A stretch of DNA of 64,000 nt from Macrostomum lignano (lineage: Eukaryota): positions 1 through 64,000 of the forward strand of contig NIVC01002858.1 of assembly GCA_002269645.1 (NCBI GenBank). Direction: 5' to 3'. The stretch's first letter is position 1, and every line of letters starts with the position of its first letter. Below are positions 1 through 47,824 of this stretch, piece by piece. The translations under genes were made by a program, and so were the position numbers. Under the pieces are notes generated by a model. That model saw only the letters and a list, made by a program, of their open reading frames with translations, did no database searches and was not told the origin of the DNA.

Positions 1-748
1 AAAACACAATTTTAAGAAATCTTACAAGAGACATTTCCGATCAATTTTAATTCCGGAAATAATGTTTATTTATATAATAACTTTTCCATTTAAATAAAGG
101 AAAGGGATTAAGTTCGAAAGACTCCGAAAGGATTTTAATTTTAGTGATATTATTTCAATTTTTCTTATTCGAGAGAATACAAAGTTTATAAGGATAGGTA
201 ACATACTAACGAAATGTTACTGAAAAAGTCATTGGAATTTTTATGTATTGATAAAAAATTTAAACCTAGGATCAGAAGAGAGTTACCACTTTGGGAAGAA
301 TATATAAACGTATGCATTAAATAAACTAAACAAACCTGAAAGTTCTACAGTACTTCCTGACGCGCGGACTTTGTAACCCGGTAGCAATAGTTTCCGGTTT
401 GTATTCAATAGTTTCTATCGGAGGAGCTTTGGTTTGTCCAAACGCAATTCTTCAATTCCATATCGGTAAAAGTTTCAACATCCAAATTCTATTTCTATCT
501 TTTAAATATTTTTCATATAACTCAACCGCGTTGATAATTCATGAATAGTTATCTCTCCGTCATCCAATATTTTTTGCACATATAAATATAATTGATTTTT
601 ATATTGTTTTGCAACATCTCTTAAAGATTTATATTTTTCCTTTCTTTTTTAAGATATAATTTAATTGCTAAAAGTATTGATAAGTTCCTGATCAATTCAA
701 AACCTGATATTGAGCCAATTGAAAATACCTAAAAATAATTGAGATAAA

Positions 749-1006
749 TTAAGAGTTGGAATATTGTAAAATACCTAAAACAATTACACATAACATCGAT
801 AAGCTTCCAAATCCAATATTGAAAAAATCCATATTTCTGATATGATTTGAAATTCTTCTTACTTTTTTAGTATATAAATCATAATCATAATTTATTCGAT
901 CAACATTACTCAACATGTGACCCTTGCGTTGGTCGTGCATAGCACGCGAACCTTCGGTTCGGTCAAAATGATCACGTTCCCTTTTATCTGCTTCAGACAC
1001 CGACAT
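749..1006 (-). CDS. Small Polinton protein with C-terminal hydrophobic segment; contains an in-frame double-hairpin module
   Basis: 85-aa ORF with hydrophobic tail FFNIGFGSLSMLCVIVLGIL and AAAATG start context like neighbouring genes. Confidence 0.45.
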   Translation of the reverse strand: MSVSEADKRERDHFDRTEGSRAMHDQRKGHMLSNVDRINYDYDLYTKKVRRISNHIRNMDFFNIGFGSLSMLCVIVLGILQYSNS

Positions 1007-1319
1007 TTTCGTCTATTTTTAATAGCACCAAAATGAATTCCCCGCGCTCTTTGGGTATTTGTCCCGAGCTCAATAGGTATTGTATTGGAGTGATTCTTTC
1101 TTTTTTCTCCCATTTAAATCCTATTTTCCAAAACTCTTGAAGTATAATATGATTTTTTAATAACTTAATTAATTCTTGAAGCTTCTTGTTATCCTGAACA
1201 TTTACAGTACTAAATAAAAATTTGGTATGAGATTTGAATGTTTTTATATTTGATTCTTGTTTAGGAATAGGAATAATAACATTATTTTGCCGCATCGATG
1301 GAGTTCTACTAAAAGCCAT
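993..1319 (-). CDS. Hypothetical Polinton protein (108 aa)
   Basis: ORF in the co-oriented gene cluster with TATAAAATG start context; no recognisable motif. Confidence 0.45.
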   Translation of the reverse strand: MAFSRTPSMRQNNVIIPIPKQESNIKTFKSHTKFLFSTVNVQDNKKLQELIKLLKNHIILQEFWKIGFKWEKKERITPIQYLLSSGQIPKERGEFILVLLKIDENVGV

Positions 1320-1357
1320 TTTATATATAAATATTTAGATTTGTACGGGTGGTTTTT

Positions 1358-3208
1358 CTAAATAAGCGGTAGAAGGAAAAACATAACCAAACGATGTGCT
1401 ACCACAAACGGCTGCGCACGAATAAAATGTGCAGCATCCGATCCTCCAGTTCGAGCACCAAAACCCATAAGGGTTCCAGATTTATCTAAAGTTCCCCAAG
1501 TTCCACTATCATATGTGAAAACGTTCTGTCCAATGAGGGTAAAAGAATCACCAGCAAACATTGTATGACTGTAATCGGTACCAAACCCTTTGATTTAAAA
1601 TATTAATTTCAAATAAATGCCAATCGCCGTTATCAATATTTGCATAATCTACCGTTTGATCTGCGTCAGTATTAACATCCGCGCGGCTTGATCCGTCTGA
1701 TTTTTTATTACTCCATACAACGCCAAATTTATCATGCCACTCACTTGCAAAAACTATCAATCCGGCGTCGGTTGTTAATCCAGTCCCACCTTCACTTGTT
1801 GGGCGTTCGTGACAATATGCATAAAACCAAACCGCATCTGCACCATCTCCTGTAGAATTAGCGACTCGGAAATAGAAAGACGCAGATATATTTTGAAAAT
1901 GTGTGAAATTGAATTGTAATGCCCCACTTACTCCACCAGTTTCACGAGTAATTCTAGCTCCATTTTGATAATCGATATAAGAAGCGTCGCCAATTAAAGA
2001 ACCAACTGGATATATATCTCCAGCGGTTGTTGGATTTTGATATCCAGTCCAATTACAAATTACTGGCTCGAATAATGCGGCATCAATCGCGGGAATATTA
2101 TCCAATTTATTTTTATCACCGGCAGACATTCTACCATTTGAAGTTGGAGTTGCTACCTGATCTACGTACGCTCGCGGGTAGCAGATAGTATTTCATTTGG
2201 CCAATTAAGATCTTGAATTTCAACTCGGTGTTCAAATAATTGTATTAGACGAACCTCGATAGGTTGTGTAGCGGTGCCACCAGTTGGGAATAAAACGCTA
2301 TAATATTTCCAAAAATTAACCGTTAAATTAGTTAACGCAAATGAAGTTGCTTGAATTGGTGATCCCGACGTTCGTAATACCGTCCATGCATCGGTAGCAA
2401 CATTTTTTGCACGAACCGACCATCCCGATGGAATATCAATAGTTGCGCTGCCTGTAATTCTTAATTCATTTATTCTTCGATTATAACCTAAAAATTCAAA
2501 TTGAATTTCCATATTGGTTGTGGTTCCGGTATTTGGTGACCATTGTGTCGCAAGGCTTCCATCTCCAACTCGAAAAGCATCGTTGGTATTTTCGGATGCT
2601 GTAAGAACAACATCTGGATTTGAAGTATTTGATGTAAGCGGCGTGGCAAAAATATCGGCGTCGGTTACATTAGCTCGAGCGTTGACCTGCCCTAAATTGA
2701 CCGAGTCTGTGGCCTCTGTTCCAAATAATAAATTTGTTAATTTAAAATTATTCATATTGATATTGCCGTTACGACTACCAACCTGATTATCGACATAGTT
2801 CTTATCAACTACCGAGTTATTCGTTGTAATTGCAACATTTATAATTCGATTGTTATCCATATCTAAAGTTCCGGTTGCGGTGGCTTGAACATAACGCGAA
2901 TCAGAATCAGTTCGAGAATAAGAATCAGTTATATCTCTTTTTAAATTTAACCCAGTGTCAACCTCTGATTTTGTATATGAATCGCTAATATCTCTTTTAA
3001 GATTTAATGAAGTATCGATTTCAGTTTTGGTATAGGAATCTGCAACATTCCGTTTCAAATTTAGTTTAGTATCAACTTCACTTTTTTTATAACCTTCATC
3101 TTCATTAATATATCGATTATCTCCAAATGTAACACTTATTCCACCAGATGTGCCACCACCACCACTACTTGTTGTTCCGTTCCATGAGGGTGTTCCAGAA
3201 AATATCAT
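1358..3208 (-). pseudogene. Fibre/adhesin-like virion protein with discoidin-like and L-type lectin-like domains, split by two frameshifts
   Basis: ORFs 2162-3208, 1548-2129 and 1358-1561 join into one protein. It has YTKxEVD repeats, a YadA-stalk-like motif (LTNL..GT..TDSVNLGQV), ATRAYVD/MSAGDKNKLDNI fibre motifs across the first shift (2 extra nt near 2170), and a lectin-like GADAVWF...DNGDWH segment. Confidence 0.7.
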
Positions 3209-3245
3209 TTTTTACTGTCTATTTTATAGAGTCTAAAATCGAACC

Positions 3246-3689
3246 TTAGGTTCGCATGCTTTGCATGATAGTCTTAAATACTTTGTGGTTTACACGAGCT
3301 TCATTCGAAATTCGATATAAAAAATATAACGCTGCTTGTCCGCAATAACTTTTATCAAAGGTTTGAAACTGTTCGTGATGATCTCCACATAAACGATTTT
3401 TAGTATGATTAAATTTGTCTTTTATTTCCTGTAACGGAGGAAGCGCGTATGAATCAAAAAAATAAACAAGTTTTGGTTTTGAATAAACTGCTGACCAATG
3501 AACACCGTTTTCTTTTGTTGTTTCAATATTAACAATGAAAGATCCATATTGTGGTAAGTCTTTGATCTCATCTCGCATAACACATCTGAATGGTTTTATT
3601 TTTAACTGCCTCGCCCAATTTGTTAATTCGATATTGCTTGTTGTGTCCGTTCCATATCTTTGTTTAAAATCATCCCACGTCATGGTCAT
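3246..3689 (-). CDS. Adenain-like (C5) cysteine maturation protease
   Basis: Motifs GVHWSAV (His), YFFDSY (Asp) and QFQ....YCG (Gln/Cys) in adenain order, in Polinton context. Confidence 0.9.
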   Translation of the reverse strand: MTMTWDDFKQRYGTDTTSNIELTNWARQLKIKPFRCVMRDEIKDLPQYGSFIVNIETTKENGVHWSAVYSKPKLVYFFDSYALPPLQEIKDKFNHTKNRLCGDHHEQFQTFDKSYCGQAALYFLYRISNEARVNHKVFKTIMQSMRT

Positions 3690-3690
3690 T

Positions 3691-3900
3691 TTATGTTCCT
3701 GAAAAACTCTTGGTTTTAGTTAGTTTCGTAGGTGTGGGTTTTAACAATTCCTTTCTTATTTTATCAGCTTGTAACTGCCTTAATTTTGCTAGTTCTAGTT
3801 CGTAATTATCTTCAGCTTTTTTAACTTTTTCTGATTGTTTTTTTATTAAATTATTATTATTATCGTGCTTTGCACGCGAACATGTTGTTCGATTACCCAT
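3691..3900 (-). CDS. Small basic coiled-coil Polinton protein; contains an in-frame double-hairpin module
   Basis: 69-aa ORF fitted tightly between mCP and protease, with TAAAAATG start. Confidence 0.4.
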   Translation of the reverse strand: MGNRTTCSRAKHDNNNNLIKKQSEKVKKAEDNYELELAKLRQLQADKIRKELLKPTPTKLTKTKSFSGT

Positions 3901-3944
3901 TTTTACTATAGGAAACGGACAAAGTCCTCGAACCTTTGGTTCGG

Positions 3945-4730
3945 CTAAACCTGTTTTATACGTAAAATCACTGTTATTGACTGCCCACCAAAACTTATTA
4001 ATCTATCGCTTTCATCTACAATCCTAATATAAATTGATTGAACATTATATTGATTTAATGGGTAATATATTGGGGTTTGAGGTGATACAATCATTTTCTC
4101 TCCAATTGGAACAGCAAGAAATGGGATTGAATAAATAATTCCACGTTGAACCAAAACTCCGTTATCGTCTGTTATATAACCACCGTTTGAAATGTCGGTT
4201 GTTATATTAATTGTATTTACTCCACCCTCTATATTTCCAACTGTATCACCGGTGCTTGATGTGGTAACTATTCGGGAATTAAATCCAAGTATGGTTCTGA
4301 GTGAATTTGCAATTGTGAAATCAACCTGATATCCGGATCCTAGTGATAGTGTGAATCTGCCAGACGGTAAATCAACACCTATAACAATCGCGCCTGCTAC
4401 CCAATCGCCGTTAGATGTTAATTCTCCTTCTATATAAGCATTCAAATCAGTATAGCTATACGCTCCTGGGTTAACGCTAAATGTTGTCCAATTGGCTCCG
4501 GAATCTTTAGAATATCTAAATTGATTATTTGTTGCATTAATTAATTGAGGCATGTTGAAAACCGAAAATAGTATTAAACCTATTTGATAACTTAGGCTTT
4601 GATCAAGTTGTAATGGATCGCGCAATTGAATCCGTTGCTCGCTGGTTGTCATTATAAACTGTAATGTTGTACTAAATTTTGAATTAGTTCGATCTACCAA
4701 TTGTTTTATAGTATCTAAATTTGTAGTCAT
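3945..4730 (-). CDS. Minor capsid protein (penton-like, single jelly-roll)
   Basis: 261 aa with Polinton mCP-like pattern (NNQFRY, PGAYSYTDLN, C-terminal YYPL..IYIRIVDE..RLISFGG..ITVILRIK). Confidence 0.85.
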   Translation of the reverse strand: MTTNLDTIKQLVDRTNSKFSTTLQFIMTTSEQRIQLRDPLQLDQSLSYQIGLILFSVFNMPQLINATNNQFRYSKDSGANWTTFSVNPGAYSYTDLNAYIEGELTSNGDWVAGAIVIGVDLPSGRFTLSLGSGYQVDFTIANSLRTILGFNSRIVTTSSTGDTVGNIEGGVNTINITTDISNGGYITDDNGVLVQRGIIYSIPFLAVPIGEKMIVSPQTPIYYPLNQYNVQSIYIRIVDESDRLISFGGQSITVILRIKQV

Positions 4731-4828
4731 TTTTATAGTGGGAAATTAATCGGACGAAGTCCGCGTTCCGAAGGAACGATCGAACGAAGTTCGCGACCCT
4801 ATGGGGCGATCGTACAAAGGTACGCGTG

Positions 4829-5628
4829 CTATGCACGATCCTCTTCTTCCTCATTATCTTCTTTTATCAAATTTGTTAAAATTCTATGTTTCCTTTCTAA
4901 CCTCGGATTGATATAAATATGTTTGTATTGGCTATCATCCCAAATTTTTTTACACATACTTTTAAATGGTTTTGCATCCAACCCGGGATTAAATCTAGCG
5001 TGAATATTTTGTAGATCATAGTTATCTAAATCAAACATTACACAACAGCTAGCATTCTTTTTATAATCGATTCTAATTCTCTAAAGGATTGAGTAAGATA
5101 AAAAGCTCCAATTCCATCTCCTCTACCACTAACAAAAATTTCCTTTTGTAATTCTTGATCACCGTCATTAATACAATCATCAAAAATAATTAGTGTTTTA
5201 TCATGTTTTGGAATTTGATCATAGGCTAATCGGGTTGATACTCTAACAGTTGGGGCTCGATCGGACGAAGTCCGCGACCCTTCGGGGCGATCGGTGATGT
5301 TTTCTGGCTGTTGTGCCATTGTTTTACATAAATCCTCAATGTCTGCTAGATTAAATCGCGGTTCGTCATCATCCTCATATTGCTCATATGCTCTTAACAT
5401 TCTAAACAAGACATCTTTTTTTAATTTGTTTTTTAATCCATGTTTAAGAAATTCATAATATTTTATTCTAGGTTTGTTAGTATAAATTATTAAATTATTA
5501 TAGTCTAGCATTCCATCTGTTGTTAATAAATCGTAAACAAAGTGTGTTTTTCCTTTACCCGACCCACCAATTACTAAACAAAGAAAAGGATCATTTGGAA
5601 ATATCTTATCGTGTTTTGCCTTTACCAT
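4829..5628 (-). pseudogene. A32/FtsK-family genome-packaging ATPase, one frameshift
   Basis: Walker A GGSGKGKT, Walker B LIIFDD and GR.....LTQ motif. One extra A in the run near 5060 restores IKKNASCCVMFDL and joins ORF 5038-5628 to ORF 4829-5038. Confidence 0.9.
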
Positions 5629-5679
5629 TTTTAAAGAAATAATTTAAATAGGCGCGACGGTCGGAGACCTGCACTCATT

Positions 5680-7152
5680 TTACAGCGGCGCGTCCCGAAC
5701 AATCGTGCCATCAGCTTTAGCAATTGACATATATTCCTCTAGAAACAATACGTGGGCGTCAAGTGCCTGATTACCGGTTTTATTAATCTCTAACATATAA
5801 TTAAGTCCAATATTGGCTACGTTTTCTTTCTGTGCCGTTAGATCATAAACAACCACTGGATGAATGTTTAGAAACTCTGTGGGTGTGTACTGAGGGACGG
5901 CATACGCTTCATTTTTAGCATAATCTTGATAATATTTTATAAAATCATTAACATTATTATTTGCTATATTTAAATTTAGGGGGTCTTTAACCGGATAATA
6001 TTGATCATCAACCTGCAGGCGGATATTCTGAACATTAAACTCGTTAATTGCAGCAACTGCGTTGTCTGTTGCGGTAGCTGCTTGTGCTGCTATGTCACCC
6101 GATTGAAGCCAATATAAATCCCCATTTGCTCTTTTACTCCTTCTATTTGTTATCTTAAACCAAACAAAAATATATCTCACCCGACGTTTTGATGTCAGTA
6201 TTTGCCACTGGAATGAATCCTGATTGTTATTAATGGTTCGCATAAAGTGTCTACGATTCAAATAAAATATTTCCTGATCATGCGTTAACTGATTATCGAT
6301 GTGTTTTAAAAGCGGAGCTGTTACCTCAATAGTTGGTACGACTAATTGAATTGAATCTATACGAACTGCTATATCGGTTGAAATTGAGGTTCCATAAAGT
6401 ATCCTAGGCTGATATCCACCAGATATTTGCAACTGTATCCCAAATTTTAATCCTTTCCATACCCGATTTGGTGAGAAGAACCCAAATAGCGGGAAGATTG
6501 AAAAGTCCTGCTCATATGCTGTTGCTGTGGTTAAAACCGCGACTGGGAATTTATTCTGACGATCTATAAAACCAGTATTAATATCTTTTGTATTAGTCAT
6601 AGTGGTTACAACTGGAACTATGTTTGTATTAAGGTAAACAATTAGCGCTGCAGTATCTGCACCGGCTGCGTTTTGTACATTAGGGAAAACTACTGCTTGA
6701 CCGTTACCTTTATCCGGCATCCACCCAACATTATCACCAACTTGTTTTGATAAATAAGTATAATTTAAATGTTTCAAAACTCCATTAATCTCTGCGGGGT
6801 TTGATGATGTCTCAACCTCAGCACCATTAACAGTTAGTTGAGCTTGGGAAAAACATTTATAAAACCAATCATTTTCTATTATTATTCCGGATCGATCTGC
6901 GATATCTCCGGCTGCAAGAGCAGTTCCATCATTTCTAGTATACAACCATCTAACGCGGAAAAACGCATTTTTCATATCCAATATAGTGTTGGTTGCGCCG
7001 ATGTCAAAAGTTACCGTTCCAGTAGTAAAGTTATTTGAATTATCACTTGTTGGTAGGGTATAATTTAAATCTCTTGCTCTGACCTCATTAATATACTGTC
7101 GGTGCTTTTTGAAATGAAATTTATCACTCCACATAGTTTTTGTTTCAGCCAT
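5680..7152 (-). CDS. Major capsid protein (double jelly-roll, hexon-like)
   Basis: 490 aa, beta-rich, FSQAQLTVNGAEVE motif; size and position next to the ATPase and mCP are typical of a Polinton MCP. Confidence 0.85.
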   Translation of the reverse strand: MAETKTMWSDKFHFKKHRQYINEVRARDLNYTLPTSDNSNNFTTGTVTFDIGATNTILDMKNAFFRVRWLYTRNDGTALAAGDIADRSGIIIENDWFYKCFSQAQLTVNGAEVETSSNPAEINGVLKHLNYTYLSKQVGDNVGWMPDKGNGQAVVFPNVQNAAGADTAALIVYLNTNIVPVVTTMTNTKDINTGFIDRQNKFPVAVLTTATAYEQDFSIFPLFGFFSPNRVWKGLKFGIQLQISGGYQPRILYGTSISTDIAVRIDSIQLVVPTIEVTAPLLKHIDNQLTHDQEIFYLNRRHFMRTINNNQDSFQWQILTSKRRVRYIFVWFKITNRRSKRANGDLYWLQSGDIAAQAATATDNAVAAINEFNVQNIRLQVDDQYYPVKDPLNLNIANNNVNDFIKYYQDYAKNEAYAVPQYTPTEFLNIHPVVVYDLTAQKENVANIGLNYMLEINKTGNQALDAHVLFLEEYMSIAKADGTIVRDAPL

Positions 7153-7186
7153 TTTTTTAAGTTAAAAAAGTTTTTTATGTTAAAAA

Positions 7187-7858
7187 ATGAGTCAATTTAT
7201 GGACGTTGATGGAGAGTTAGCGATTTATAAAGAGAAGCAAAGATATTCTGATTTTGTTAGAAATTTACAAAAAAGAAAGTTAGGAATACAATTAGCGGGT
7301 GAAAGATTTGCTGCTCCTTTTGTTAATCCTATTACTGGGAAAATTAGTGAACTAGAAAAAACAGATAAAGATCTTCTGGAAAAAATTGCTAAAAATACGG
7401 AGCCAAAAGAGGATGAAATTTTGGATGAGCCGCCAGCTTATGATGTTGATCAAGCTCAATTGAGAGTTGCAGAGATTAGGGCTGCAGAAAGGGGTGGAGT
7501 TGATGAATATCCGAGAGCTGCACCAACTAGTATTGCTGTGACAGATTTAGGTAATAATAATTATCGAATTGGTGGAGTTGATAAAAATCGAAATGAACTA
7601 TATAGAGAATTGGGCGGAGCATATAATATTGTTATGAACCCTAGGGTAAAATTTAACCCTGAATTATATACTAGGGATGAATTAGTAAGTGCAAAAATTT
7701 TTTATGATGAGTTGGGAGTAAGAGCTGCTAAAAATACCAGCTTGTATAAAAGGATTGTTAATTCTATAAATAACAAACCAGCTGTTGGAGAAGGATTTAA
7801 AACACCGCGAAAACTTGTTTTAGCTGCTGCGAAAGCTGCTGGACATACTGGAGTTTAA
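7187..7858 (+). CDS. Hypothetical Polinton protein (223 aa), possibly a virion core protein
   Basis: Clean ORF, TAAAAAATG start, divergent from MCP across a 34-bp AT-rich gap. Confidence 0.6.
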   Translation: MSQFMDVDGELAIYKEKQRYSDFVRNLQKRKLGIQLAGERFAAPFVNPITGKISELEKTDKDLLEKIAKNTEPKEDEILDEPPAYDVDQAQLRVAEIRAAERGGVDEYPRAAPTSIAVTDLGNNNYRIGGVDKNRNELYRELGGAYNIVMNPRVKFNPELYTRDELVSAKIFYDELGVRAAKNTSLYKRIVNSINNKPAVGEGFKTPRKLVLAAAKAAGHTGV

Positions 7859-7885
7859 TTAATTGTTAAATTTATTTTTTATAAA

Positions 7886-8455
7886 ATGGAACCTAAAAAG
7901 ATTTGTATTAAGTGTAAACAAGAAAAACCAATGACGAAAGAATTTTATTTTTGGAGAAATGATTCAAAAAAAATTAGAAATGATTGTCGATCTTGTCATA
8001 ATACCTCATCTACTATTTGGATGAAAAACAATAAAGATAAATTTAATGAATATAGAAAAAACAAGTATCACAATGATGATAATTACAAACATATTGTTTT
8101 AATTAGAAATAGAATAAATTGGGCGTTGAAAAATTTTAATGACAAGGACTATATCTCATATCTTGATTGCACAAAAGAATTCTTTTTTGATTGGTTAAAT
8201 TTCACAAGAAAATATTATGTTTCAAAAGATTATACTGGAAATTTAGATATTGATCATTTCATTCCCGCTTCTTCGTTTAGTTACAAAGATGAAGATCAGA
8301 TGAAAAAGTCTGAACATTGGACAAATAAAAGATACTTAACTAGCGTAGATAATAACTATAAAAAAGTTAAACAACCAACCATTGAAGAGTTTGCAAAACA
8401 ATTGGTGCTTTCATGTATTTTTAAGGCTATTAAAAATGAACCAAATAGTGTTTGA
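7886..8455 (+). CDS. Free-standing HNH endonuclease with N-terminal zinc ribbon
   Basis: CxxC...CxxC (CIKC, CRSC) followed by LDIDHFIPASSF...HWTN...DN..K, the HNH pattern seen in large DNA viruses and phages. Confidence 0.85.
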   Translation: MEPKKICIKCKQEKPMTKEFYFWRNDSKKIRNDCRSCHNTSSTIWMKNNKDKFNEYRKNKYHNDDNYKHIVLIRNRINWALKNFNDKDYISYLDCTKEFFFDWLNFTRKYYVSKDYTGNLDIDHFIPASSFSYKDEDQMKKSEHWTNKRYLTSVDNNYKKVKQPTIEEFAKQLVLSCIFKAIKNEPNSV

Positions 8456-10043
8456 AGGAGGATTGTTAGATGTTCAAAAAGGATTAACAAGCTTACCACC
8501 AATCTTTACTACTGGTAAATATACAGGGGAACTACACCTACCATCAATGAACTTCACAGGTTAACCCGTGGCCTGAGTGAGGAAGGCAATGTCCTTGCTA
8601 GTCACTATTTGTGGCGACATCTCCAAATTGCGTGAAACCCATCATACAGCTTCAAGTACCACTTCAATTGAGAAATCTTTTGAAGGAACAGAGGTAACTC
8701 CTCTTCCCAATCGTGCTTTGCACGCGAACCTATGGTTCGATGGTAACAAGCTTGAAGACACGGTGGCAATGCGCAGCCAAGCTCCTAAGTATTTTAAATA
8801 TAAGGAGAAGGTTCAGAGAGCAGACGGAGATGGGCGGTAATTATCGCCGCTTAAGGTGTGCTCCAGCCTCTTTCGAAAGATTGAGGGTAAACTACCCGGC
8901 ACTCGCTTAGATTTGAGATTAAATCCTGATGACACCCCAAAAGCCGATTCAATTCCCATAAATGGAATTGATTGGTTAGCATACTATCATGACTTAGCAT
9001 ACAGAGATGCTGATAAGAACACACCCGAGGAAGCATTAAGATTAAAACATGAAGCCGATCAAAAAATGATTCAAGGATTAGATAACTTGCAGGGATTATC
9101 GGTAGGTCAAAAATTAACTAGGTGGATGGTTAAAAAGATCTTGCAGTCTAAAGTTAAATTTGGTTTGGGAATTAATTATAATCAACATGGAAATAATTGT
9201 GTTGAGTGTTTGTTGTTAAGTGGTGGTGGGTTAAGTTCTGATGAGGCAAAGATTCTTCATAAAGAATATCGAAAACCGAAATTTTATAGAAAAATCATGA
9301 ACTTCAAAAAGAATGAAATTTGGTATGCTGATTTAATGTCGATGCCGAACGAAAGAGGATATAAATATATCTTAACCATATTAGATGGTTTTACTCGATA
9401 CGCGTGGGCTGTTCCTTTGAAATCCAAAAAAGGAGAGGATGTTGCTGCTGCTTTTAGAAGTCTTGGAGAAAAAAGCGAACGTTTGTGTGTTGACGAAGGA
9501 AAAGAATTTTACAATCCTCATATGCATAAATTATATCATTTTGAAAAAGGACAAGAAAGGAAAAAAGACGCGAATGGGGAGTATATTAATAAAATTTATT
9601 CTATTTATGGAGAAAGCAAAAACGCATTAATAGAAAGATTTAATCGAACTTTAGGTAAGAAATTGTGGTTTCAGTTTAGTCTTAATGGTAACCAAAAATG
9701 GGTAAAAATATTACCAGACGTAGTGAAAGATTATAACAATTCATATCATTCGGCGATAAAGATGACTCCTCAACAAGCTTATAACAATCCTGAAAACGTT
9801 AAAGTTACTTTTGGAAAATTTGAAAAAAATAAAAAGAAATCTTTTAAGGTTGGTGATTCTGTTTATATCTATAAATGGAAAGATAAGTTTGAAAAAGGAA
9901 GAAAAGGATATTGGAAGATAAGTGAGAAATTTACTATCAGTAAAGTTTTAAATACCAATCCTACAACCTATATAATTGCTGATAAGGACGGTGAAGAAAT
10001 ATTGGGTTCGTTTTATGAGAACCAACTAATATCAGCGAACTAA
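8436..10043 (+). CDS. Parvovirus-VP1-type phospholipase A2 (PLA2X-like) fused to rve integrase; two exons, 8436-8561 and 8895-10043, about 424 aa
   Basis: Joining the exons restores HLPSMNFTG|PGTRL (the YxGPG loop), followed by PINGID..AYYHDLAY and HEAD. The integrase triad is WYADL / CVDEGKEF / IERFNRTL, with a C-terminal GSFYENQL. Confidence 0.9.
8562..8894 (+). ncRNA. Group I intron, IC1-like, without an internal homing endonuclease
   Basis: P1 CAGGU/GCCUG with U-G at the 5' splice site; P3 CAUCUCC/GGAGAUG; P AAAUUGCGUGAAA; Q AAUGCGCAGC; R GUUCAGAGAGCA; S AAGGUGUGCUCC. P7 has a bulged A8817 and G8818-C8863 pair. P5abc has a GAAA tetraloop and A-rich bulge. P6, P8 and P9 hairpins all pair. 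Confidence 0.93.
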
Positions 10044-10053
10044 GTTCGAACAG

Positions 10054-10308
10054 TTACTTAAGACAACATGGTAGTAAATTTTTTATTACAAACAAAAACA
10101 ATATTATTACTATTATTGTTACTAATATTATTATTGACATTTGTTCAACTGTTATCAAACTTAAATTTTCATTAAGTTCATTAATTGGAACATTTCCGAT
10201 GTAGGAATAATCGTGCAAAGCACGCGAACCATGGGTTCGATTTACCTTCATTTTTTTATATATATTTTTCATAATAAACGTCGTTTCTGTTATAGAATAA
10301 TAGTTCAT
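10054..10308 (-). CDS. Small Polinton membrane protein; contains an in-frame double-hairpin module
   Basis: 84 aa with strongly hydrophobic C-terminal helix SIIILVTIIVIILFLFVI; TAAAAAATG start. Confidence 0.45.
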   Translation of the reverse strand: MNYYSITETTFIMKNIYKKMKVNRTHGSRALHDYSYIGNVPINELNENLSLITVEQMSIIILVTIIVIILFLFVIKNLLPCCLK

Positions 10309-10324
10309 TTTTTAAATATTTTTT

Positions 10325-10639
10325 TCACATAAAAATTTCACTTTCATTCTCTGAATCACTGGTTTCATATGAACTATTTGTTGATTCGGAATCTGTTGAT
10401 CTAACCTCCCAATCATCCGAATTTAAATAATCTCCAAGTTGAAATATTAACTCACCCTCTTGTTCTAAATCATACATCTCATCTAGCTCTAATGGATAAA
10501 GCTTTAGGTCATGCTTGTCGTCATATTTTAAATAAACTTCATCAATTATTCCATTCAAAATATGTTGTTTTATTATCTCTGCATTTTTAGCAACAGTCTC
10601 AAAAGTATCACTAACAGAAAAGGTGTAAACTCGGGTCAT
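10325..10639 (-). CDS. Small acidic Polinton protein (104 aa)
   Basis: Clean ORF with TAAAAATG start and Ser/Glu-rich tail. Confidence 0.5.
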   Translation of the reverse strand: MTRVYTFSVSDTFETVAKNAEIIKQHILNGIIDEVYLKYDDKHDLKLYPLELDEMYDLEQEGELIFQLGDYLNSDDWEVRSTDSESTNSSYETSDSENESEIFM

Positions 10640-10696
10640 TTTTAGTAACAGAAAAAGACCCTTCGCGCCTGCGGCGCGGGCAAGGGGTTATAGAGT

Positions 10697-10970
10697 AGTA
10701 GTAGGGAAAAAGACGCTTCCAGATCAGACCTTTTTTAATGATCGTTTATAAGGTTCCAGAGGGGGGACACGAGGGGTGTGATAAGATGAGTTGGGGATGG
10801 GTTATATTGATTTTTGGTATTAAGGGGTGTTGTGGGTGATTATGGGTGATTAGATGTGTTAAGGGTGTTTAGATGTGTTTTTTATTTACCCCCCGTGTCC
10901 CCCCTCTAGACCCTTAAAACGGCTGTTAAAAAAGTGCTCTGGGTCTGGAAGCGTCTTTTTCCCTACTACT
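10697..10970. repeat. Polinton right terminus with internal inverted copy (racket-like fold-back)
   Basis: AGTAGTAGGGAAAAAGACGCTTCCAGA...GAGGGGGGACACG (about 10697-10777) is an imperfect inverted repeat of about 10888-10970. Confidence 0.8.
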
Positions 10971-11575
10971 CCTGGCTGTGGGCGGTGCGGAACAAAGAGC
11001 CTATATGCCGCTTCCCACTGTCTGGGCTCTGGGCCCACTGTGAGAGAAGGGAGCTCGGGGAACTCGGAGCTCTCTAAGACTTGTGATCCCTTTGCCATCC
11101 CGATTCTATATGGTCTGTGGGCTTGGGGGATGTCTCGAGAGGTGAACTCTATTGTCCACCCTCCCTGCTGGCTCTGCTGGCTGACTGTATGGTGTTTTTT
11201 ACTGCGATAGCTCCGTGTAATGAACCGAAGTTCCCCTTTGTTCTGGCCAAGATCTTGGAGCCCTCTGGCGCCATTCGAACTGTATTCTTCTTCTTCGCTG
11301 AATTTATTGAGTGAGAATTCTGCTATTCTATGACAAAGCTTTTAGTTTTACTTTAAAGTTTAAACTAAAGGTTAGGAAATACAACTGCACCAATCCCGAA
11401 CAAACTCTGGCTAGTCCACATCAAAGCTCCACAGAGACTCAGGTTTGGATAGAGTTTAGAACTACAAATTTAATAGTTTTAGAAGACTAGATTTAGAAGC
11501 CAAAGTTCAATATGCGCTCGTAGTTGCAGTTTGGAATTTAAAGAAAAACAATAAGTACTTCAATTTTTCTCCATC

Positions 11576-14425
11576 ATGGAGAAGAGAGAAAGAAGTAGAC
11601 GATCGCACCGTAGAGACGCAAAGAAATCTTTGGAAGAATTGTTGCAAGAGACTGCAACGAACCGTAACTGCCGTGTTGCAGAAACACAGGAACAATTGAA
11701 CGAGTTTCAAACTGAACCTGCAGCTACAGCTGCATCCATGAGTTTCCGCTCCCCTGTTCCCCTGGCATCGCATTTGCATCCCAACAGCTTTTCGCCCGGC
11801 CATTCAGATTCCGAGCTTGACACAATCTGTGACGACGAGCCAGAAGTTGTTGACAGAAGCTATTACTACTCAGCCGAAGCTTCAGGTAACTAATTATTGT
11901 TATTTATACTGCTAAGTATAAATTACATGTACGCACTCGCACTCGCACTGCATGTATAGATATAGATATATACATCTATATACTTTATACTATATACTAT
12001 ATACAGTCTGAATCTGAATATTTTAAAAATATTTTAACATACATATATAAATGCAGTGTATTATATATATTAAGTTTAAATTAAACCCTCACCCATAAAC
12101 CATCGCCCATAAACCATAGAACTAATAAAGTTCATACTATACTATAGTACATGCTATATTCATGGGCGAATGGGTTGGTGCATGGGTTTATGGGTGAAGC
12201 CATTTTTCATATATTAGATGTACATACATGTATATATGTAAACTGCATGTATATACGAGCGTATGTTTGCTATTCTTTCATTGATTTTCTCTCCAGAGAG
12301 AAGAAAAGCTCGAATAGAAGATCAAAAAGAACGACGAGACATAGCTCGTAACTAGCTAGCTATACCAGTATGCAATTTAAACATTTTAATTAATTAAATT
12401 TTTAAGGGTATTCGTACGTATTTTTACGAGGTACATGTAGTAGAGCTTCAATTTGAGACTTTGAGTAATCACAGTGACAGGGCTAGGCTGATAATTGGTA
12501 GGCTTTAATGAAGGATAAGAGCACCAGAGATACAGCTTCTCTTTTTGCTACACTGCACTTTCTAAAAATACCCACTCTACCTTCATCACAGACATCGAAT
12601 ATCAAGACGGAGACGATTTAGAAGAAGCTGGTCAACTGGAGTCAAGTGGAGTGCGAAGAATCCTGCATGACTGGGTAGAGGCGAACAACCCAAAAATAAG
12701 CTCAGTCAACGACCTCCTCAAACGCATGTCAGAGATTCACCCGGAGCTTCCCGCAGATGCTCGAACTTTGATGGAGACTCCGAGAGATCTGAATTTGAAA
12801 CGCGTTGAGCCAGGTCACTACTTTCACTTTGGCATAGTAAAAGGGCTAGATTTCATTTTTTCAACTTGTCCTCTGCCGTCAAATGAAGCAATGATGTTTC
12901 ATTTGTTTTTAGATGGTGCTAAGGTTTATAAGAGTTGCAATACCACAATGTGGCCCATATTGGGTCGAGTGAAAGGAATCTCGCATTCTGATTTTGTAAT
13001 TGGAATTTATTGTGGCTCAAAAAAGCCTTTGTCTGCCTCTGATTTTTTGTCGGATAGCATCTCTGAACTCAGTGACTTACTCTCTAATGGCTATATTAAT
13101 TCCGGTGTTACCATCCCATTTGTTCTAGAGATGGTTATGTGTGATGCTCCTGCAAGGCACTTTGTAAAAGGTACGAAAAACTGCACTGGCTATTCTGCTT
13201 GTGACAAGTGCACCGTGCGAGGTCAGTATGTGCATGGAAGAGTTGTTTTCTGCGACACAGATGCACCAATTAGAACTGATGCTGATTTCCGCTTTGCTAG
13301 TTCACCCGAATGTCCTCAAAATCATTTGTACAAACAGCACGTTACATCTGCTAGCTTATTTTGTGCATTGCCAATCGATATGATTTCAACGTTTCCTGTA
13401 GACCCAATGCACCTACTGTACGAAGGAGTTGTTCATAAGTGCTTAAACAACCTAGGCTCAGCTGTTGTGCCTCATCGTGTTGCATCTGCCTCAAAGCGTG
13501 AAATTAACAGCGCACTAGAAGTTGTGGCGCAAGGCATAACCCATGACTTCCCGCGTAAGCCTCGATCATTGGATGTTTTAGGGCAGTGGAAGGCAGTCGA
13601 GTTTCGACTTTTTATTCTGTATTTGGCTCCTGTTGTCCTGCAAGGCCTTGTTTCAGACACGATGTACAGTCTGTTTGTATCCTTACACGTTTTTTCCTTT
13701 CTGCTTTCGAATCCGATCACGAGCAGCATGCACTGCGACTATGCCGAAAGCCTTGCGAAATGGATTCTTCGTTGCTGTCAACGCCTTTGGGGGCAAGAAT
13801 TCATAGTGTACAATTTGCACACCCTCATCCATATCCCTGCTGATGTTCGCCGATTTGGCCCCTTGGAGCAGTTTAGCTGCTTTTGGGGCGAAAATTTTCA
13901 ACGTTTCATTGCTGCCTTTTGCCGTGGTCCCTTCATGGCTCTTCAGCAAGTTGTAAAGCGAGTCTCTGAGAGAGATGTTACGCTCGGTTTTCTTAAAAAG
14001 CATGTCAAAAAAGTACAATTAGCCCAGTTTACTCTGTCCAGGCCCATGCCTCTGCCGACACTATTCTGCCTGTTCGAGTTTCCACAGCTTTTTCTCGCCT
14101 CGACTTACCTTTAAAGTCAACATTTCTATCGGTTTCTAAGCCTGATTGCTATTTTATGACTCGAACTGGGCTCGTGTGTCGAGTTTTTCACATACTTTCC
14201 ACTGTTGATAATTCCTGCTACCTGAATGTTTGTAGTTTTAGGCAAGCAGAGCCTCTTTATGTAACTCCGGTGAACTCTTTTGACACCAATATGATATCCG
14301 TTGTGAGTAAGCTTTCCAGCGGCTACAGTTTATTACGAAAAGAAGATATTTTCTGCAAGGCAATGCTTATCCCTTTAAAAGATAAGCAAGTCGCTTTCCC
14401 ACTACTGCACTCCATGCGAAGCTGA
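11576..14425 (+). pseudogene. CMC/EnSpm (CACTA)-type transposase gene, spliced, with a C-terminal frameshift
   Basis: Main ORF 12651-14114 has FLDG, WPI, CDAPAR..VKG...GYSACDKC, DPMHLLYEGV, WKAVEFR and NLHTLIH..DVRRFGPL...F..EN motifs. It continues in 14156-14425 after a shift near 14115. Plausible upstream exons at 11576-11885 and from 12591 (acceptor TCACAG). Confidence 0.8.
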
Positions 14426-15082: not shown

Positions 15083-18000
15083 CAGGGAATCCTAAAGACC
15101 TGGAAGTGACACTGTCCAATGGGGGCGGTCCAACTCAGGCCGATCCTACCTAACCAAACAAGGCAGCCCATGCCATTTTCTATAGGGTTTTCAGTATCAA
15201 CTCGATGATACAGCGCTGAAAAGTCATATCCCCTGAATTTTTTAAAGTCCTTATTGTAACGAAATAAACGAAAGTTTCATGAGGCCTTTTATAAGAAACA
15301 ATTATGCATAAAACTGGTAAACCATAGGCTATATAAACATAAAAAGGGTTTTAATCAAACTTACCAGGGTTGAAGGATCATCGGACATCAAAAAGGCAGT
15401 AATTATGCATCAGGATAAACTGGGAGCTTACTCGTAAATAAAATAATTAGCAGTAACTCGGAATCGTCAAAACAATGAAGCTTATAAAAATATACTATTA
15501 CGAGTACTAAGGATTCAATTTGGCCAGTTTGCGAGAGCAGTCCTCAGTTCTCTTCTGTTCTCCCGATTTCCGTTTGCCTACAACGGATGGGCGGTTAGCT
15601 TCAGAAGAAAGGTTTTTCAGAAAACAGTTTAGGAGTCGGAAAGAAAACTGCCGAATGACTTGTCTAAGTGAATGATTTGAGCAGCGGAAGCGACGAGCCG
15701 AAAATTTTGCACAGTTTTGAGTTTTTACTATCACGACTGATGCGAATGTTTGATGCGGTTTAAAGCTAAGAAGCTTCTGCAGCAGCTGCTTGGAGCCCTT
15801 GATGAGCTCAAACGAATTGAACGCTGTCATGCAGAGAACGAAAGCAGAATCCGATGGACAGCACAGTCCTCCCCGTGATGACTGTCGAACTAGGAAATCA
15901 CGATTAGGAGCATCGTCGAGAGTCACTTCCATTGGAGGGACCTTGTCTTCGCTCACCAAAAATTCTCTACAATCAGCACATCCCTTGCTGATGGACTTTG
16001 AAAGGTAACCTGCTATGTAGAACATCACGTTCAAACAGCCCATCTCGTTACTGCGCAAGGTCATGCATGGCTCATCTGACACATCAGCGAAGATTTCTGC
16101 TGCTCTTAGACTAACGTCAGTGTCTTCCTGCTCAACATCCTTCATGAAAGACTTCTTTAAGCGTAGCAAGTCTATTTCCGAGTGCTTAAGCAATGAAGTC
16201 ATTCTAAGTTTATTCTCGGACTGAACGACCTGCTTTGCACTGATAAAATACAATCCGCCGGACATCTGCCTGTACTTTCCGAACTGCCTTTCAAGAGGAT
16301 CGGACAACAACTTTCCCAGCAGAATGTAGTCAAAGTGGCCAGTAGAAAAAAGTTTCGCACACAATAGTGGAATGGCTGAGCATGTTTGAATGAGGCTGCC
16401 AAATGTCTCGTTTGTCAGACCATCTGCGCCTGTTGATACCGCTCGCCACTTCTTTAGGAAGCCAACAAAGTCAGCAAGGTACTGGAGCTGCCAGTCTTGC
16501 ATATTAGTTAGCGGCTCACTTTCCGGTCTTCTTAATTGTTGACCGGCGAATGGCGTTCGAACATTCAATATTGCCCACAGCTTCCTGATCATGGACAAGA
16601 AATTGGCTGTGCTATTGAACGTTGAAGTGTCTACCTCCGTGCTCTTTGTGCTTGAATACAGTCTGAGTGCAGAAACTGTTGTGTCATCGAACACAGCTGC
16701 AGCCAGTGAAGCACTAGTTCTCTCGACATTAAGAGGACGTAAAACCTTCTCCGACAGACGGAAGGCAATCTTTGACGACTGACCTCTTTCAATTTCAAAA
16801 ATAGCCTCAACATCACTGAACCTTGCCACAAAGTTGCTGCAATTGTCGAACGCTGGACAGTGAAATACACCTCGTCTCTGAAAGTTGTTATACACATTTT
16901 TAATGTTGTGAGTAGTGTCCATCAGCAAGAAGATTTCTTTCTGATCGTCACATGGATGTCGCATAGACAGCCCATGTTCAGGTACAGCTGACATTGAGTA
17001 AAACTTTCGGTTGACAGAGGAGTTGTCACAGGACAATGCAACAATTTCAAATCCACTCTTTGTGACAGCCGCAATCACTTCCTTGGCCATGTTGCATAAG
17101 TCCAGAGCGGTCAAGCAGTTAACAGGAAATAGACCGACAACATCCTGATAGGATGCGCCGACGGACTTGATTAGAAAGGCAAGAATTGAGGAGGTCATTT
17201 TACCGTCACTCGCAAGGCCGTAAGCAGAGTCGCAATTGAACTCGATTCTTTTAGCTGTTGCGACCTCATCAATAATGAGCACAACGTGCTTCTCTCTGCT
17301 AGACAGTGACTCTGTCCTCAACTGCAGGTACATTTCCTCAACCACTCCAGGCTCCTTCGAAAGAACAGCATTTAGCCTGACAAGGCTTCTTACAGATGGT
17401 AGGCAGAGGGCACCATTTTCTAGGATTGCCTTATAGGCGGCACGACTTGTCGAAAAGATCAAGTACGCAAACACAGTTGTTGATGGTGAATATCGTCGAG
17501 CAGATACTTTTTGATGAATCAGTGAGAACTGTTCAGCTAAGAAATTGACATTGCTGCTCAGTTCAGAATCATCACTCAAAGATTCGAGGTAGACTTTTAA
17601 AACGCCTTCAACAAATGCAGACGACACATTTGAATTGCGAGAGTCAACAGCAACAGTAGCCGAAGACTTAATCAAGGCTAACATGTTTTCTAAAGTCGAA
17701 AGCTGACGCACATGTAGCGAGTCATCTTTGAGCAGGTGTTTAAACATGCTATCAGAGCAAGAAAGGCCAGAGATGAAGACTTGGAAGGTAAGGTCCTGCA
17801 GTACTGTCATAGAGGCAAGCAGACAAGGAGCTGAAATCGAGTCAGATCTTGTTATCAAGTAAAACGAGACTGAATCTGCTTCCTTACTTCTGACGAATCC
17901 AGAGGGAATCGTCGCTTGTTCCAGCTTTTGAATCAAATCGCTGAAATCGCACAACTCGTCGGAGCCAAAAAAGTCGCTGATTTCCTCATCTAAGCGGACT

Positions 18001-18778
18001 TGGTCTCCCATGAAGCGCGCAGCGGAAGTGGCATTTTGACTTCTTACCTGCGTAATTGGCTTGCTCAGGTATTTCGGCAAGCCTTCAAATTGAGATGGAA
18101 CTGCATCGTCTTTGAGTCGAATCAGATGCAGCTTTGAATCAGATGCAGAAAAGCGTCGTTTCTTCCGGCGTTGATTCGCATCCGATGAACTCTTCACGAA
18201 ATCTGATTCAGTGAAATGCTTCGAGCAGACGCGTTGAAATTCGGAAGCATTTAAATCAGCATTTGGAATGGCGCGAAGCCAGCGCTGTCGCAAGTTGGTG
18301 TCTTTAGGAAAAGCATAATAGCTCACATTTTCTGTCTTCTGCGACGCGTAGCCAGATTTGCAGCCAAATACACAGCACTTGTAACCCATTATGATGCTTG
18401 CAAATGAGAGGATATTCAGTTTGATTATGAACACACGAAAGCTTACTTAAATGCAGCTCGATAGGGGCATAAGAGTTATGTGTGCATTCAACAGTGCGTC
18501 ATCATGTTTAGAATTCGTACACTCATGTACAATGCGCTCCTTTCATATTGAATCAGTCTTTATTTGGACAGTGATTTTCTCTGCACTCTCTATCCTCTCA
18601 GTCCACTCAACCCCTTCTCTATCCTTCGTTCCTCCCTTTTTCGAGTCGCTTTACTAGCCCCTGCAAGAAAATGTTTTTCCTCTTTGTCCTCTCTCCCAAA
18701 AAAGTTATCGGCCTGGGTTGGACCGGCCTGGAGGGCCTGAATATTGCAGTGTCACTTCCAGGTCTTTAGGATTCCCTG
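15083..18778 (-). mobile_element. P-superfamily (THAP) DNA transposon, apparently complete
   Basis: Perfect 32-bp TIRs CAGGGAATCCTAAAGACCTGGAAGTGACACTG (15083-15114 and 18747-18778), TSD CCCTGTC (15076-15082 and 18779-18785), and a subterminal inverted motif CGGTCCAAC(T/C)CAGGCCGAT. Confidence 0.92.
15507..18389 (-). CDS. THAP-domain P-element-like transposase (960 aa from MGYK)
   Basis: THAP zinc finger (CCVFGC, FP....RQRW, VCSKHF) and catalytic-type motifs LIIDE, SCDN, DTTHNIKN and SDPLERQFG..RQ..G; uninterrupted ORF. Confidence 0.92.
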   Translation of the reverse strand: MGYKCCVFGCKSGYASQKTENVSYYAFPKDTNLRQRWLRAIPNADLNASEFQRVCSKHFTESDFVKSSSDANQRRKKRRFSASDSKLHLIRLKDDAVPSQFEGLPKYLSKPITQVRSQNATSAARFMGDQVRLDEEISDFFGSDELCDFSDLIQKLEQATIPSGFVRSKEADSVSFYLITRSDSISAPCLLASMTVLQDLTFQVFISGLSCSDSMFKHLLKDDSLHVRQLSTLENMLALIKSSATVAVDSRNSNVSSAFVEGVLKVYLESLSDDSELSSNVNFLAEQFSLIHQKVSARRYSPSTTVFAYLIFSTSRAAYKAILENGALCLPSVRSLVRLNAVLSKEPGVVEEMYLQLRTESLSSREKHVVLIIDEVATAKRIEFNCDSAYGLASDGKMTSSILAFLIKSVGASYQDVVGLFPVNCLTALDLCNMAKEVIAAVTKSGFEIVALSCDNSSVNRKFYSMSAVPEHGLSMRHPCDDQKEIFLLMDTTHNIKNVYNNFQRRGVFHCPAFDNCSNFVARFSDVEAIFEIERGQSSKIAFRLSEKVLRPLNVERTSASLAAAVFDDTTVSALRLYSSTKSTEVDTSTFNSTANFLSMIRKLWAILNVRTPFAGQQLRRPESEPLTNMQDWQLQYLADFVGFLKKWRAVSTGADGLTNETFGSLIQTCSAIPLLCAKLFSTGHFDYILLGKLLSDPLERQFGKYRQMSGGLYFISAKQVVQSENKLRMTSLLKHSEIDLLRLKKSFMKDVEQEDTDVSLRAAEIFADVSDEPCMTLRSNEMGCLNVMFYIAGYLSKSISKGCADCREFLVSEDKVPPMEVTLDDAPNRDFLVRQSSRGGLCCPSDSAFVLCMTAFNSFELIKGSKQLLQKLLSFKPHQTFASVVIVKTQNCAKFSARRFRCSNHSLRQVIRQFSFRLLNCFLKNLSSEANRPSVVGKRKSGEQKRTEDCSRKLAKLNP

Positions 18779-47814: not shown

Positions 47815-47824
47815 GTGAAATCGA

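Follow-up and report, generated by a model that had tools for sequence, protein, structure and literature searches.

The first 64,000 nucleotides of contig NIVC01002858.1 of Macrostomum lignano (assembly GCA_002269645.1; this whole stretch is hereafter termed the window) begin with the right part of a Polinton/adintovirus-like element, in which a gene encoding a phospholipase A2 (PLA2) domain fused to an integrase is interrupted by a nuclease-free group I intron. We found that two Polinton families of this genome, that of the window (family 1) and a sister family (family 2), have purged the word GGNCC almost everywhere, including by avoiding the dipeptide Gly-Pro, and that the sole retained Gly-Pro, located in the G-P-G motif of PLA2, is the insertion site of the intron. 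The original prediction for this stretch paired the intron with the free-standing HNH nuclease gene directly upstream as a collaborative homing module. We regard it as fairly probable that the intron instead provides immunity within a restriction-like system of homing or competition that lacks a methylase and is built on a second, Eco47II-like nuclease, and that HNH is an interchangeable second homing nuclease.

GGNCC purge and the intron-less junction

A Gly codon followed by a Pro codon invariably yields GGNCC, and this word is the one interrupted by the intron: GGT (8559-8561) and CC (8895-8896), apart in the window, are contiguous in intron-less alleles. No GGNCC was found in positions 1-10970, the element part of the window, against 14.1 expected under a first-order Markov model (14.6 ± 3.9 in a separate estimate), and this was the only zero among the 256 words of the form XYNZW. 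With a second-order Markov background (0 observed against 15.4 expected), GGNCC was still the top-ranked word. The observed and expected numbers were 0 and 22.3 in the complete family-1 copy C283, 0 and 15.0 in C13, and 1 and 13.2 in C757, while two intron-bearing stretches of family 2 yielded 0 against 10.3 and 0 against 8.9. Altogether, the 134 intron-bearing loci of family 1, which are not independent copies, contained seven GGNCC against 377 expected, and all seven were in L096 and L189, which apparently carry inserted DNA. The Gly-Pro dipeptide was absent from 12 open reading frames (ORFs) of family 1, where 7.5 were expected. As controls, the host part of the window contained 81 GGNCC (114.6 expected), and seven stretches around other families with a protein-primed DNA polymerase B (pPolB) contained 137 (182 expected; 37/61 in the polymerase ORFs).

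In the intron-less alleles, the junction was the GGNCC of the compared region in 3/3 cases of family 1 and 12/12 of family 2. Extra GGNCC words were found in one intron-less stretch of family 2 (one word) and in one intron-less element of family 1 (three words, inside a non-homologous insert). A pattern search detected 29 intron-less alleles genome-wide, of which three belong to family 1, 25 to family 2, and one to neither, and three of the 29 have lost GGNCC through a Pro-to-Gln codon. The guide sequences of nuclease-linked introns avoid GGGCC, which is present in both external nuclease-free introns (2/2). A third type of PLA2 allele was seen in L325, with three GGNCC in 2.7 kb.

PLA2-integrase gene and its group I intron

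The interrupted gene lies on the forward strand. Exon 1 (8436..8561) comprises 42 codons from the ATG at 8436, the last being Gly (GGT), and exon 2 (8895..10043) encodes the remainder of the PLA2-like domain and, joined to it in the same frame, a retroviral-type integrase (rve, E = 5.9e-8). The uninterrupted sister gene matched both Phospholip_A2_4 (E = 1.9e-8) and rve. The ratio of nonsynonymous to synonymous substitutions (dN/dS) was 0.05 for PLA2 and 0.13 for the integrase; these ratios, and those given below for HNH and the second nuclease, come from pairwise counts pooled over 44, 11, and 45 of 73 distinct intact sequences.

The intron (8562..8894, forward strand; 333 nt), which we term type A, ends in A. 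In a local scan, its score for RF00028 of Rfam was 60.9 bits (E = 5.6e-15), above the gathering score of 50, while a gathering-threshold Rfam scan of the whole window returned no match and missed it. The stems P1 (8557-8561/8571-8575), P3 (8618-8624/8826-8832), P4 (8628-8633/8771-8776), P7 (8818-8822/8859-8863), and P8 (8833-8838/8843-8848) pair fully, P10 (8566-8570/8895-8899) pairs at four of five positions, and the folding z-score was -2.97. P1 contains the 5' splice-site U-G pair, P7 has the G-C pair of the guanosine pocket, and two base pairs of P7 are swapped in a compensatory manner with respect to family 2. The GC content is 46.5%, against 26-37% in the neighboring genes. Both boundaries are fixed by intron-less sister copies (L038/L131, L129, and L130), which place the site at GGT^CCN in the G-P-G motif. 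A spliceosomal intron was rejected, as there is no in-frame AG acceptor and the boundaries are set by the intron-less copies. The sole ATG-initiated ORF of the intron (8589-8840; 83 aa) is translated ribozyme core, and the original prediction was thus correct in describing the intron as free of an endonuclease ORF. Four contig sets that could only be guessed to be RNA showed no 8561-8895 join and had pieces spanning the unspliced borders, with loose ends at 8604 in the P2.1 region; they were counted neither way.

A GC-rich double-hairpin insert of about 30 nt (8710..8741) is present or absent among copies, giving introns of approximately 333 or 303 nt. In 24 copies (L057-L065, L134, and L187-L200), the same 5' site is occupied by a different group I-like intron (type B) with a compensated guide; its 3' boundary is irregular, and its exon 2 does not begin with the usual P-G-T pattern. 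The intron at the same site in the external sequence L274 ends in T (approximately at position 1027).

HNH gene and the nuclease slot

The gene upstream of the intron (7886..8455, forward strand) encodes a predicted free-standing HNH (beta-beta-alpha-Me) nuclease of 189 aa, with an N-terminal CxxC...CxxC motif and the catalytic-type residues D123-H124...N147...N156. Its tail overlaps the first 20 nt of exon 1, and its stop lies 106 nt before the last nucleotide of exon 1 (T8561), all as originally described. Across 39 aligned homologs, H124, N147, N156, and K159 are invariant and D123 is conserved in at least 90%. The protein matched PHROG 1035 ("endonuclease VII"; E = 9e-7) and had 1409 relatives at E <= 1e-10 among cluster representatives, while no match was found in Pfam, in a word-indexed homolog search, or among PDB sequences. 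Pfam Endonuclease_7 does not match it but does match an insert in the polymerase of the element, detected in a family-1 copy (L316:3219-6437; residues 236-296, E = 4e-7), and HNH was not classed with the Endo VII-motif (DHHRN) homing endonucleases such as F-CphI. In IMG/VR, only distant HNHs were found (six loci). The AlphaFold2 (AF2) model (pLDDT 93) matched predicted viral structures with E-values of 1e-11 to 1e-9, the third match being an "intron encoded endonuclease" of Bodo saltans virus (E = 2.6e-9). Against solved chains, the best Z was 4.9, with several HNH nucleases at Z of 3-4.4 and no row at Z >= 5. The dN/dS was 0.47 (0.54 in the N-terminal half and 0.35 in the catalytic core), and the ORF is under purifying selection. 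HNH homologs that read into the core of related introns occur in the P0012 cluster and in L265, the intron of which precedes a PLA2 exon 2, albeit the HNH of L265 belongs to a clade different from that of the window.

In three copies (L120, L122, and L134), the HNH frame continues into PLA2 exon 1. We rejected CCNGG as a candidate target of HNH: observed/expected numbers are low in family 1 (9/25 and 5/14) and not in family 2 (16/13 and 14/10), and the word is still present, is not split by the intron, and has flanking bases that follow no rule.

The position of the HNH gene was found to be a slot with alternative occupants. In 143 family-1 loci, it held HNH in 100, the unrelated Eco47II-like nuclease (see below) in 37, and a truncated or otherwise unclassified content in six, one of which (L047) has an unrelated acidic ORF of 155 aa; the census is a lower bound, with 17 of 117 pattern matches unlisted and some loci possibly being assembly duplicates. 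About a third of the slot ORFs are broken, and the 106-nt spacing is kept in 65 of the 79 intact ones. Type-A introns co-occurred with HNH in 81 copies and with the second nuclease in 30, and type-B introns in 16 and seven copies, respectively. Thus, the nuclease in the slot is independent of the intron type (Fisher p = 0.80). Over 73 copies, the distance correlation between HNH and the intron (0.34-0.38) was no better than that between HNH and the flanks (0.21-0.51), indicating no excess linkage. An intron was present in 97 of the 100 HNH copies, and all three intron-less copies of family 1 carry HNH, two of them with an intact ORF and the catalytic residues. As the slot content is independent of the intron, no extra linkage was seen, and intact HNH genes reside in intron-less copies, the data argue against a tight HNH-intron couple.

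The HNH homologs in related introns and the purifying selection on the ORF support the position upstream of the intron being a homing-nuclease slot. That part of the proposed partnership is retained, whereas a specific couple of HNH and intron is at odds with the alternating slot. The joint spread of nuclease and intron, and the expected absence of HNH from intron-less alleles, did not find support in the scored co-occurrence.

A second nuclease resembling Eco47II and EcoO109I

The alternative occupant of the slot is a nuclease of the PD-(D/E)xK type of approximately 165 aa, unrelated to HNH. Pfam RE_Eco47II matched the family-1 protein with E = 3.8e-4 and its homologs with E-values down to 4e-7, and D65, E76, and K78 are invariant. 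In the structural comparison of its AF2 model (pLDDT 90), the best match was EcoO109I (Z 9.7, root-mean-square deviation 3.7, 166 aligned residues; next match, Z 6.0), and the Foldseek rows include EcoO109I and AvaII. The gene is intact in 17 of 26 copies, with a dN/dS of 0.23. EcoO109I cuts RG^GNCCY and AvaII cuts G^GWCC (PMC7337904), PF09553 (Eco47II/Sau96I) is of the PD-(D/E)xK type (PMC3045609), and an Eco47II homolog has been assigned GGNCC "without certainty" (PMC10305163). Of the features of a type II restriction-modification system, this nuclease, which is encoded in sister copies and not in the window, has the motif and the fold; no cognate methyltransferase was found in 17 family-1/family-2 proteins or in the 12 element proteins of the window, a scan that covered short ORFs in part.

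In family 2, the PLA2 exon of which is about 60% identical to that of family 1, a related intron occupies the same site. Each of the 28 best RF00028 matches in the genome encodes the second nuclease within the intron (27 have exon 1 upstream), where it sits in the loop corresponding to P2.1 of the window intron (8597..8617, forward strand) and reads into the ribozyme core. No HNH was detected in the 40 family-2 loci examined, and the 12 intron-less family-2 copies have neither nuclease within approximately 1.4-2 kb upstream. Genome-wide, none of the 29 intron-less alleles lay on a contig with the second nuclease among the 96 matches listed.

A metagenome pattern scan returned 67 matches, 63 of which were judged to be due to chance; the remaining four are real introns before a PLA2 P-G-T exon. 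L296 has the second nuclease inside the intron at the PLA2 site, and L265 has a frameshifted HNH, its 5' end missing, that reads into the intron core, while L255 and L274 have no nuclease inside or directly upstream. Furthermore, the public proteins P0012 (HNH, of the wider clade of the window) and P0172 (Eco47II-like) have a common 46-residue tail derived from the intron core, implying that one intron can carry either nuclease elsewhere. Both nuclease types are thus passengers of this intron family, which backs the earlier view of HNH as a homing nuclease of the locus.

In the unrooted nuclease tree, the free-standing Eco47II-like clade falls among intronic sequences. This placement and the 83-codon open frame in the window intron, which is the frame of the read-through tail, hint, weakly, that the free-standing gene may derive from an intronic one. 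The order of the two states is not rooted by the nuclease trees, in which families 1 and 2 group together with only 74/74 support. A third group of Eco47II-like genes, 57% identical, was found in the genome (G000 C1063/C1064). IMG/VR contained no relative of the Eco47II-like nuclease and none of the PLA2-integrase, and a pattern match there in a phage terminase gene was judged to be due to chance. Four IMG/VR contigs (L228-L231; three are of 100-209 kb) have related intron cores, some in multiple copies, away from the PLA2 site.

The favored explanation and its rivals

Under the explanation that we favor, the Eco47II-like nuclease would cut GGNCC. The intron-less junction would be nearly the only cut in a purged relative, and a short-site enzyme would then behave like a homing enzyme; with the cut at the insertion site, repair from an intron-bearing genome would spread the intron. 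Competitors carrying GGNCC would be damaged, and the intron would protect the one GGNCC that PLA2 function forces the element to keep. HNH would be an alternative occupant of the slot, having replaced the second nuclease in most family-1 copies and homing on its own. HNH probably homes too, recognizing a longer site within or close to the locus, and we give about even chances to its cutting the intron-less junction itself. HNH would not depend on the intron for its self-protection in every copy, and HNH copies may retain the intron because GGNCC cutters still circulate among relatives. The earlier suggestion that the G-P-G codons are the target thus holds in that the site is contested, although the evidence for protection points to the GGNCC nuclease and not to HNH. 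Both cleavage by either nuclease and splicing of the intron are predictions from the sequence. We are evenly divided on the full scenario for an animal Polinton, namely restriction without a methylase. In it, a GGNCC cutter serves as a homing or anti-competitor nuclease by virtue of the purge, and the intron confers immunity; the nuclease would have moved out of the intron, opposite to the route proposed for phages, and would now be giving way to HNH in the same slot and possibly at the same site.

Several observations weigh against this explanation. The copies are near-identical and perhaps in part assembly duplicates, so that the purge rests on two families rather than hundreds of events, and the control families have a higher GC content and stretches that include host flanks. 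The RE_Eco47II match of the family-1 protein (20.6 bits) is below the curated cut-off of 25.9, and the top Foldseek row is DdmD, which is not a restriction enzyme. Within family 1 alone, the lack of intron-less copies among those with the second nuclease (0/37, against 3/100 with HNH) is not significant (p = 0.56). The terminal nucleotide of type-A introns is A in 84 of 113, including that of the window, and the canonical G in 29, even though the guanosine-pocket pair of P7 is preserved. GGNCC is also somewhat scarce in three contigs of giant viruses that carry related introns (3/9.2, 1/6.0, and 3/9.2), so an outside pressure is possible. In the host, GGNCC occurs about every 650 nt, and such an enzyme would therefore be harmful if expressed from an integrated copy; the tolerance of intact nuclease copies in a GGNCC-rich host is unexplained by our proposal. 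As a guess, the nuclease might be expressed only in a lytic or extrachromosomal phase. Chlorovirus restriction enzymes, which degrade host DNA, offer an analogy.

A strict pair, in which the intron prevents HNH from cutting the PLA2 junction that it cleaves in intron-less alleles and both spread together, would leave the purge as a relic or side matter. The adjoining, overlapping genes with their conserved spacing, the catalytic-type motif under purifying selection with a faster N-terminal half, the intron-encoded HNH homologs, the near-constant presence of the intron in HNH copies, and the precedent of F-CphI (PMC6083498) are all consistent with it. We nevertheless consider it unlikely: HNH persists in every intron-less family-1 copy, the nuclease type ignores the intron type, the homolog in L265 is of another clade, and the purge, which is common to family 2, where HNH was not seen, would be unexplained. 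Less likely still is an outside cutter, such as a co-infecting giant virus or another parasite, that keeps up both purge and intron, with the slot nucleases being long-site homing enzymes and HNH homing independently of the intron, with exon 1 or the rival nuclease allele as possible targets. Variability within the PLA2 gene is indeed highest in exon 1 (p-distance 0.15, with a peak 10-18 nt upstream of the site), and one haplotype of exon 1 is found more often with the Eco47II-like gene (11/32 against 4/97, p = 3e-5; the copies are not independent); the independent swapping of the slot and the GGNCC-poor giant-virus contigs also fit. This account demands a coincidence, as the purged word is both the type of site of the relatives of the element's own nuclease and the insertion site, and other pPolB families of the same genome are unpurged.

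We regard as very improbable that the locus is a mere relic, in which introns with a terminal A no longer splice, integrated copies do no more than transpose or decay, and the mixture of nucleases and introns arose incidentally as repeats recombined. The terminal A is found even in the youngest, near-identical copies, and the irregular 3' boundary of type B and the broken third of the slot ORFs agree with decay. On the other hand, P7 differs from that of family 2 by compensatory swaps, a comparison of type-A and type-B introns shows covariation of the guide sequence with exon 1, and the PLA2 exons of terminal-A copies are under purifying selection (dN/dS 0.13 in exon 2 and 0.20 in exon 1, against 0.07 and 0.22 in terminal-G copies), although part of this signal may predate the change from G to A. 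The terminal A bears on the splicing competence of the copy, not on its group I descent. The checked introns of family 2, L255, L265, and L296 end in G, and a terminal A is known from coral mitochondrial introns.

If the restriction-like explanation is true, homing would proceed without a long recognition site, its specificity coming from the purge of a short word across the element, and a ribozyme would take the place of a methyltransferase in self-protection; this would be a variant of homing with a possibly new principle of self-protection. Animal Polintons would then co-infect and compete as viruses. The intron-encoded, free-standing, swapped, and intron-less states are all found in one genome, which makes nuclease gain and loss by an intron directly testable. 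By this survey, an animal nuclear assembly also contains many group I introns, while metazoan group I introns are listed in the accessible part of PMC3984707 only as scarce mitochondrial introns.

Comparison with known systems

The closest precedent is F-CphI and the psbA intron of cyanophage S-PM2 (PMC6083498, PMC3984707), in which a free-standing nuclease gene likewise lies beside a nuclease-free intron that interrupts the likely target in a conserved gene. As far as those accounts go, the present case differs in being a eukaryotic Polinton with two unrelated slot nucleases and two intron types at one site, in the better-supported partner resembling a 5-bp restriction enzyme with a genome-wide purge of its site, in the occurrence of HNH also with intron-less alleles, and in being known from sequence alone. 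Judged as a collaborative pair, HNH and the intron are adjacent, with neither intolerance of the intron-less allele nor joint inheritance; the Eco47II-like nuclease was not found with an intron-less allele (0/29), a result without significance in family 1 alone. Collaborative homing for such elements has only been speculated on in the accessible text of PMC11296320 and 10.64898/2026.10.13.758929.

Bodo saltans virus, also a eukaryotic DNA virus, possesses group I introns with and without an HNH or GIY-YIG nuclease, including nuclease-free "offspring" introns, and trans-homing and interference with competing viruses were proposed (PMC5871332). Unlike the Polinton introns, those introns reside in RNA polymerase genes of a giant virus, and the available portion of that report describes no restriction-like enzyme or site purge. 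Protist Polinton-like viruses have group I introns of similar size and putative homing nucleases in the form of free-standing HNH/GIY-YIG genes, while their introns interrupt a short gene that precedes the capsid gene and have no associated nuclease, as far as the accessible part of the source shows (PMC12220804). The adintovirus PLA2X gene is of the parvovirus type, with no intron mentioned in the accessible text (PMC8502044), and group I introns appear in the accessible part of a preprint on nematode Polintons only in a reference (10.1101/2023.08.22.554363). In the main texts of the open-access literature, we found no report that describes introns in the PLA2 gene of Polintons or a purged restriction site protected by an intron.

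Eco47II/Sau96I, EcoO109I, and AvaII (PMC7337904, PMC3045609, PMC10305163) resemble the second nuclease in motif, fold, and a GGNCC-type site that equals the purged word. The Polinton enzyme, in contrast, is shorter, has no methyltransferase among the 17 element proteins scanned, lies in or beside a group I intron, and is apparently countered by site loss and the intron. I-Ssp6803I similarly has a PD-(D/E)xK restriction-enzyme fold within a group I intron. Intron-encoded enzymes of its type recognize long sites and need no genome-wide avoidance of the site.

Other features of the element and the window

The element part of the window (1..10970) is AT-rich. Of the Polinton hallmarks, the integrase, an A32-like ATPase (5038-5628), and the terminal inverted repeat were found in the window, and a protein-primed PolB (PF03175) was seen in sister copies only, as the polymerase of the element lies outside the window. 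Probable capsid, protease, and minor capsid genes were assigned by position and size, without Pfam confirmation. Nuclease inserts like that in the family-1 polymerase are known from nematode Polinton polymerases. The element ends in a 280-nt internal inverted repeat (10694-10973), where AGTAGTAG... at 10694 is mirrored by ...CTACTACT at 10970.

GC-rich double-hairpin inserts of about 30 nt, like the one in the intron, recur at 932-963, 3236-3269, 3862-3893, 3928-3943, 4747-4838, 5258-5293, and 10210-10241. Their core has nine matches in the 11 kb of the element and one in the 53 kb of host DNA. The insert is variably present in the intron and at the overlap of the nuclease gene and exon 1, and looks like a tiny mobile palindrome. 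The host flank contains what we in part take to be a transposase-like ORF (12726-14114), a THAP/P-element-type transposase (15507-18389), a long terminal repeat retrotransposon with an integrase (47819-53445), and a TRP-channel-like ORF (56426-59326), together with several tandem-repeat arrays.

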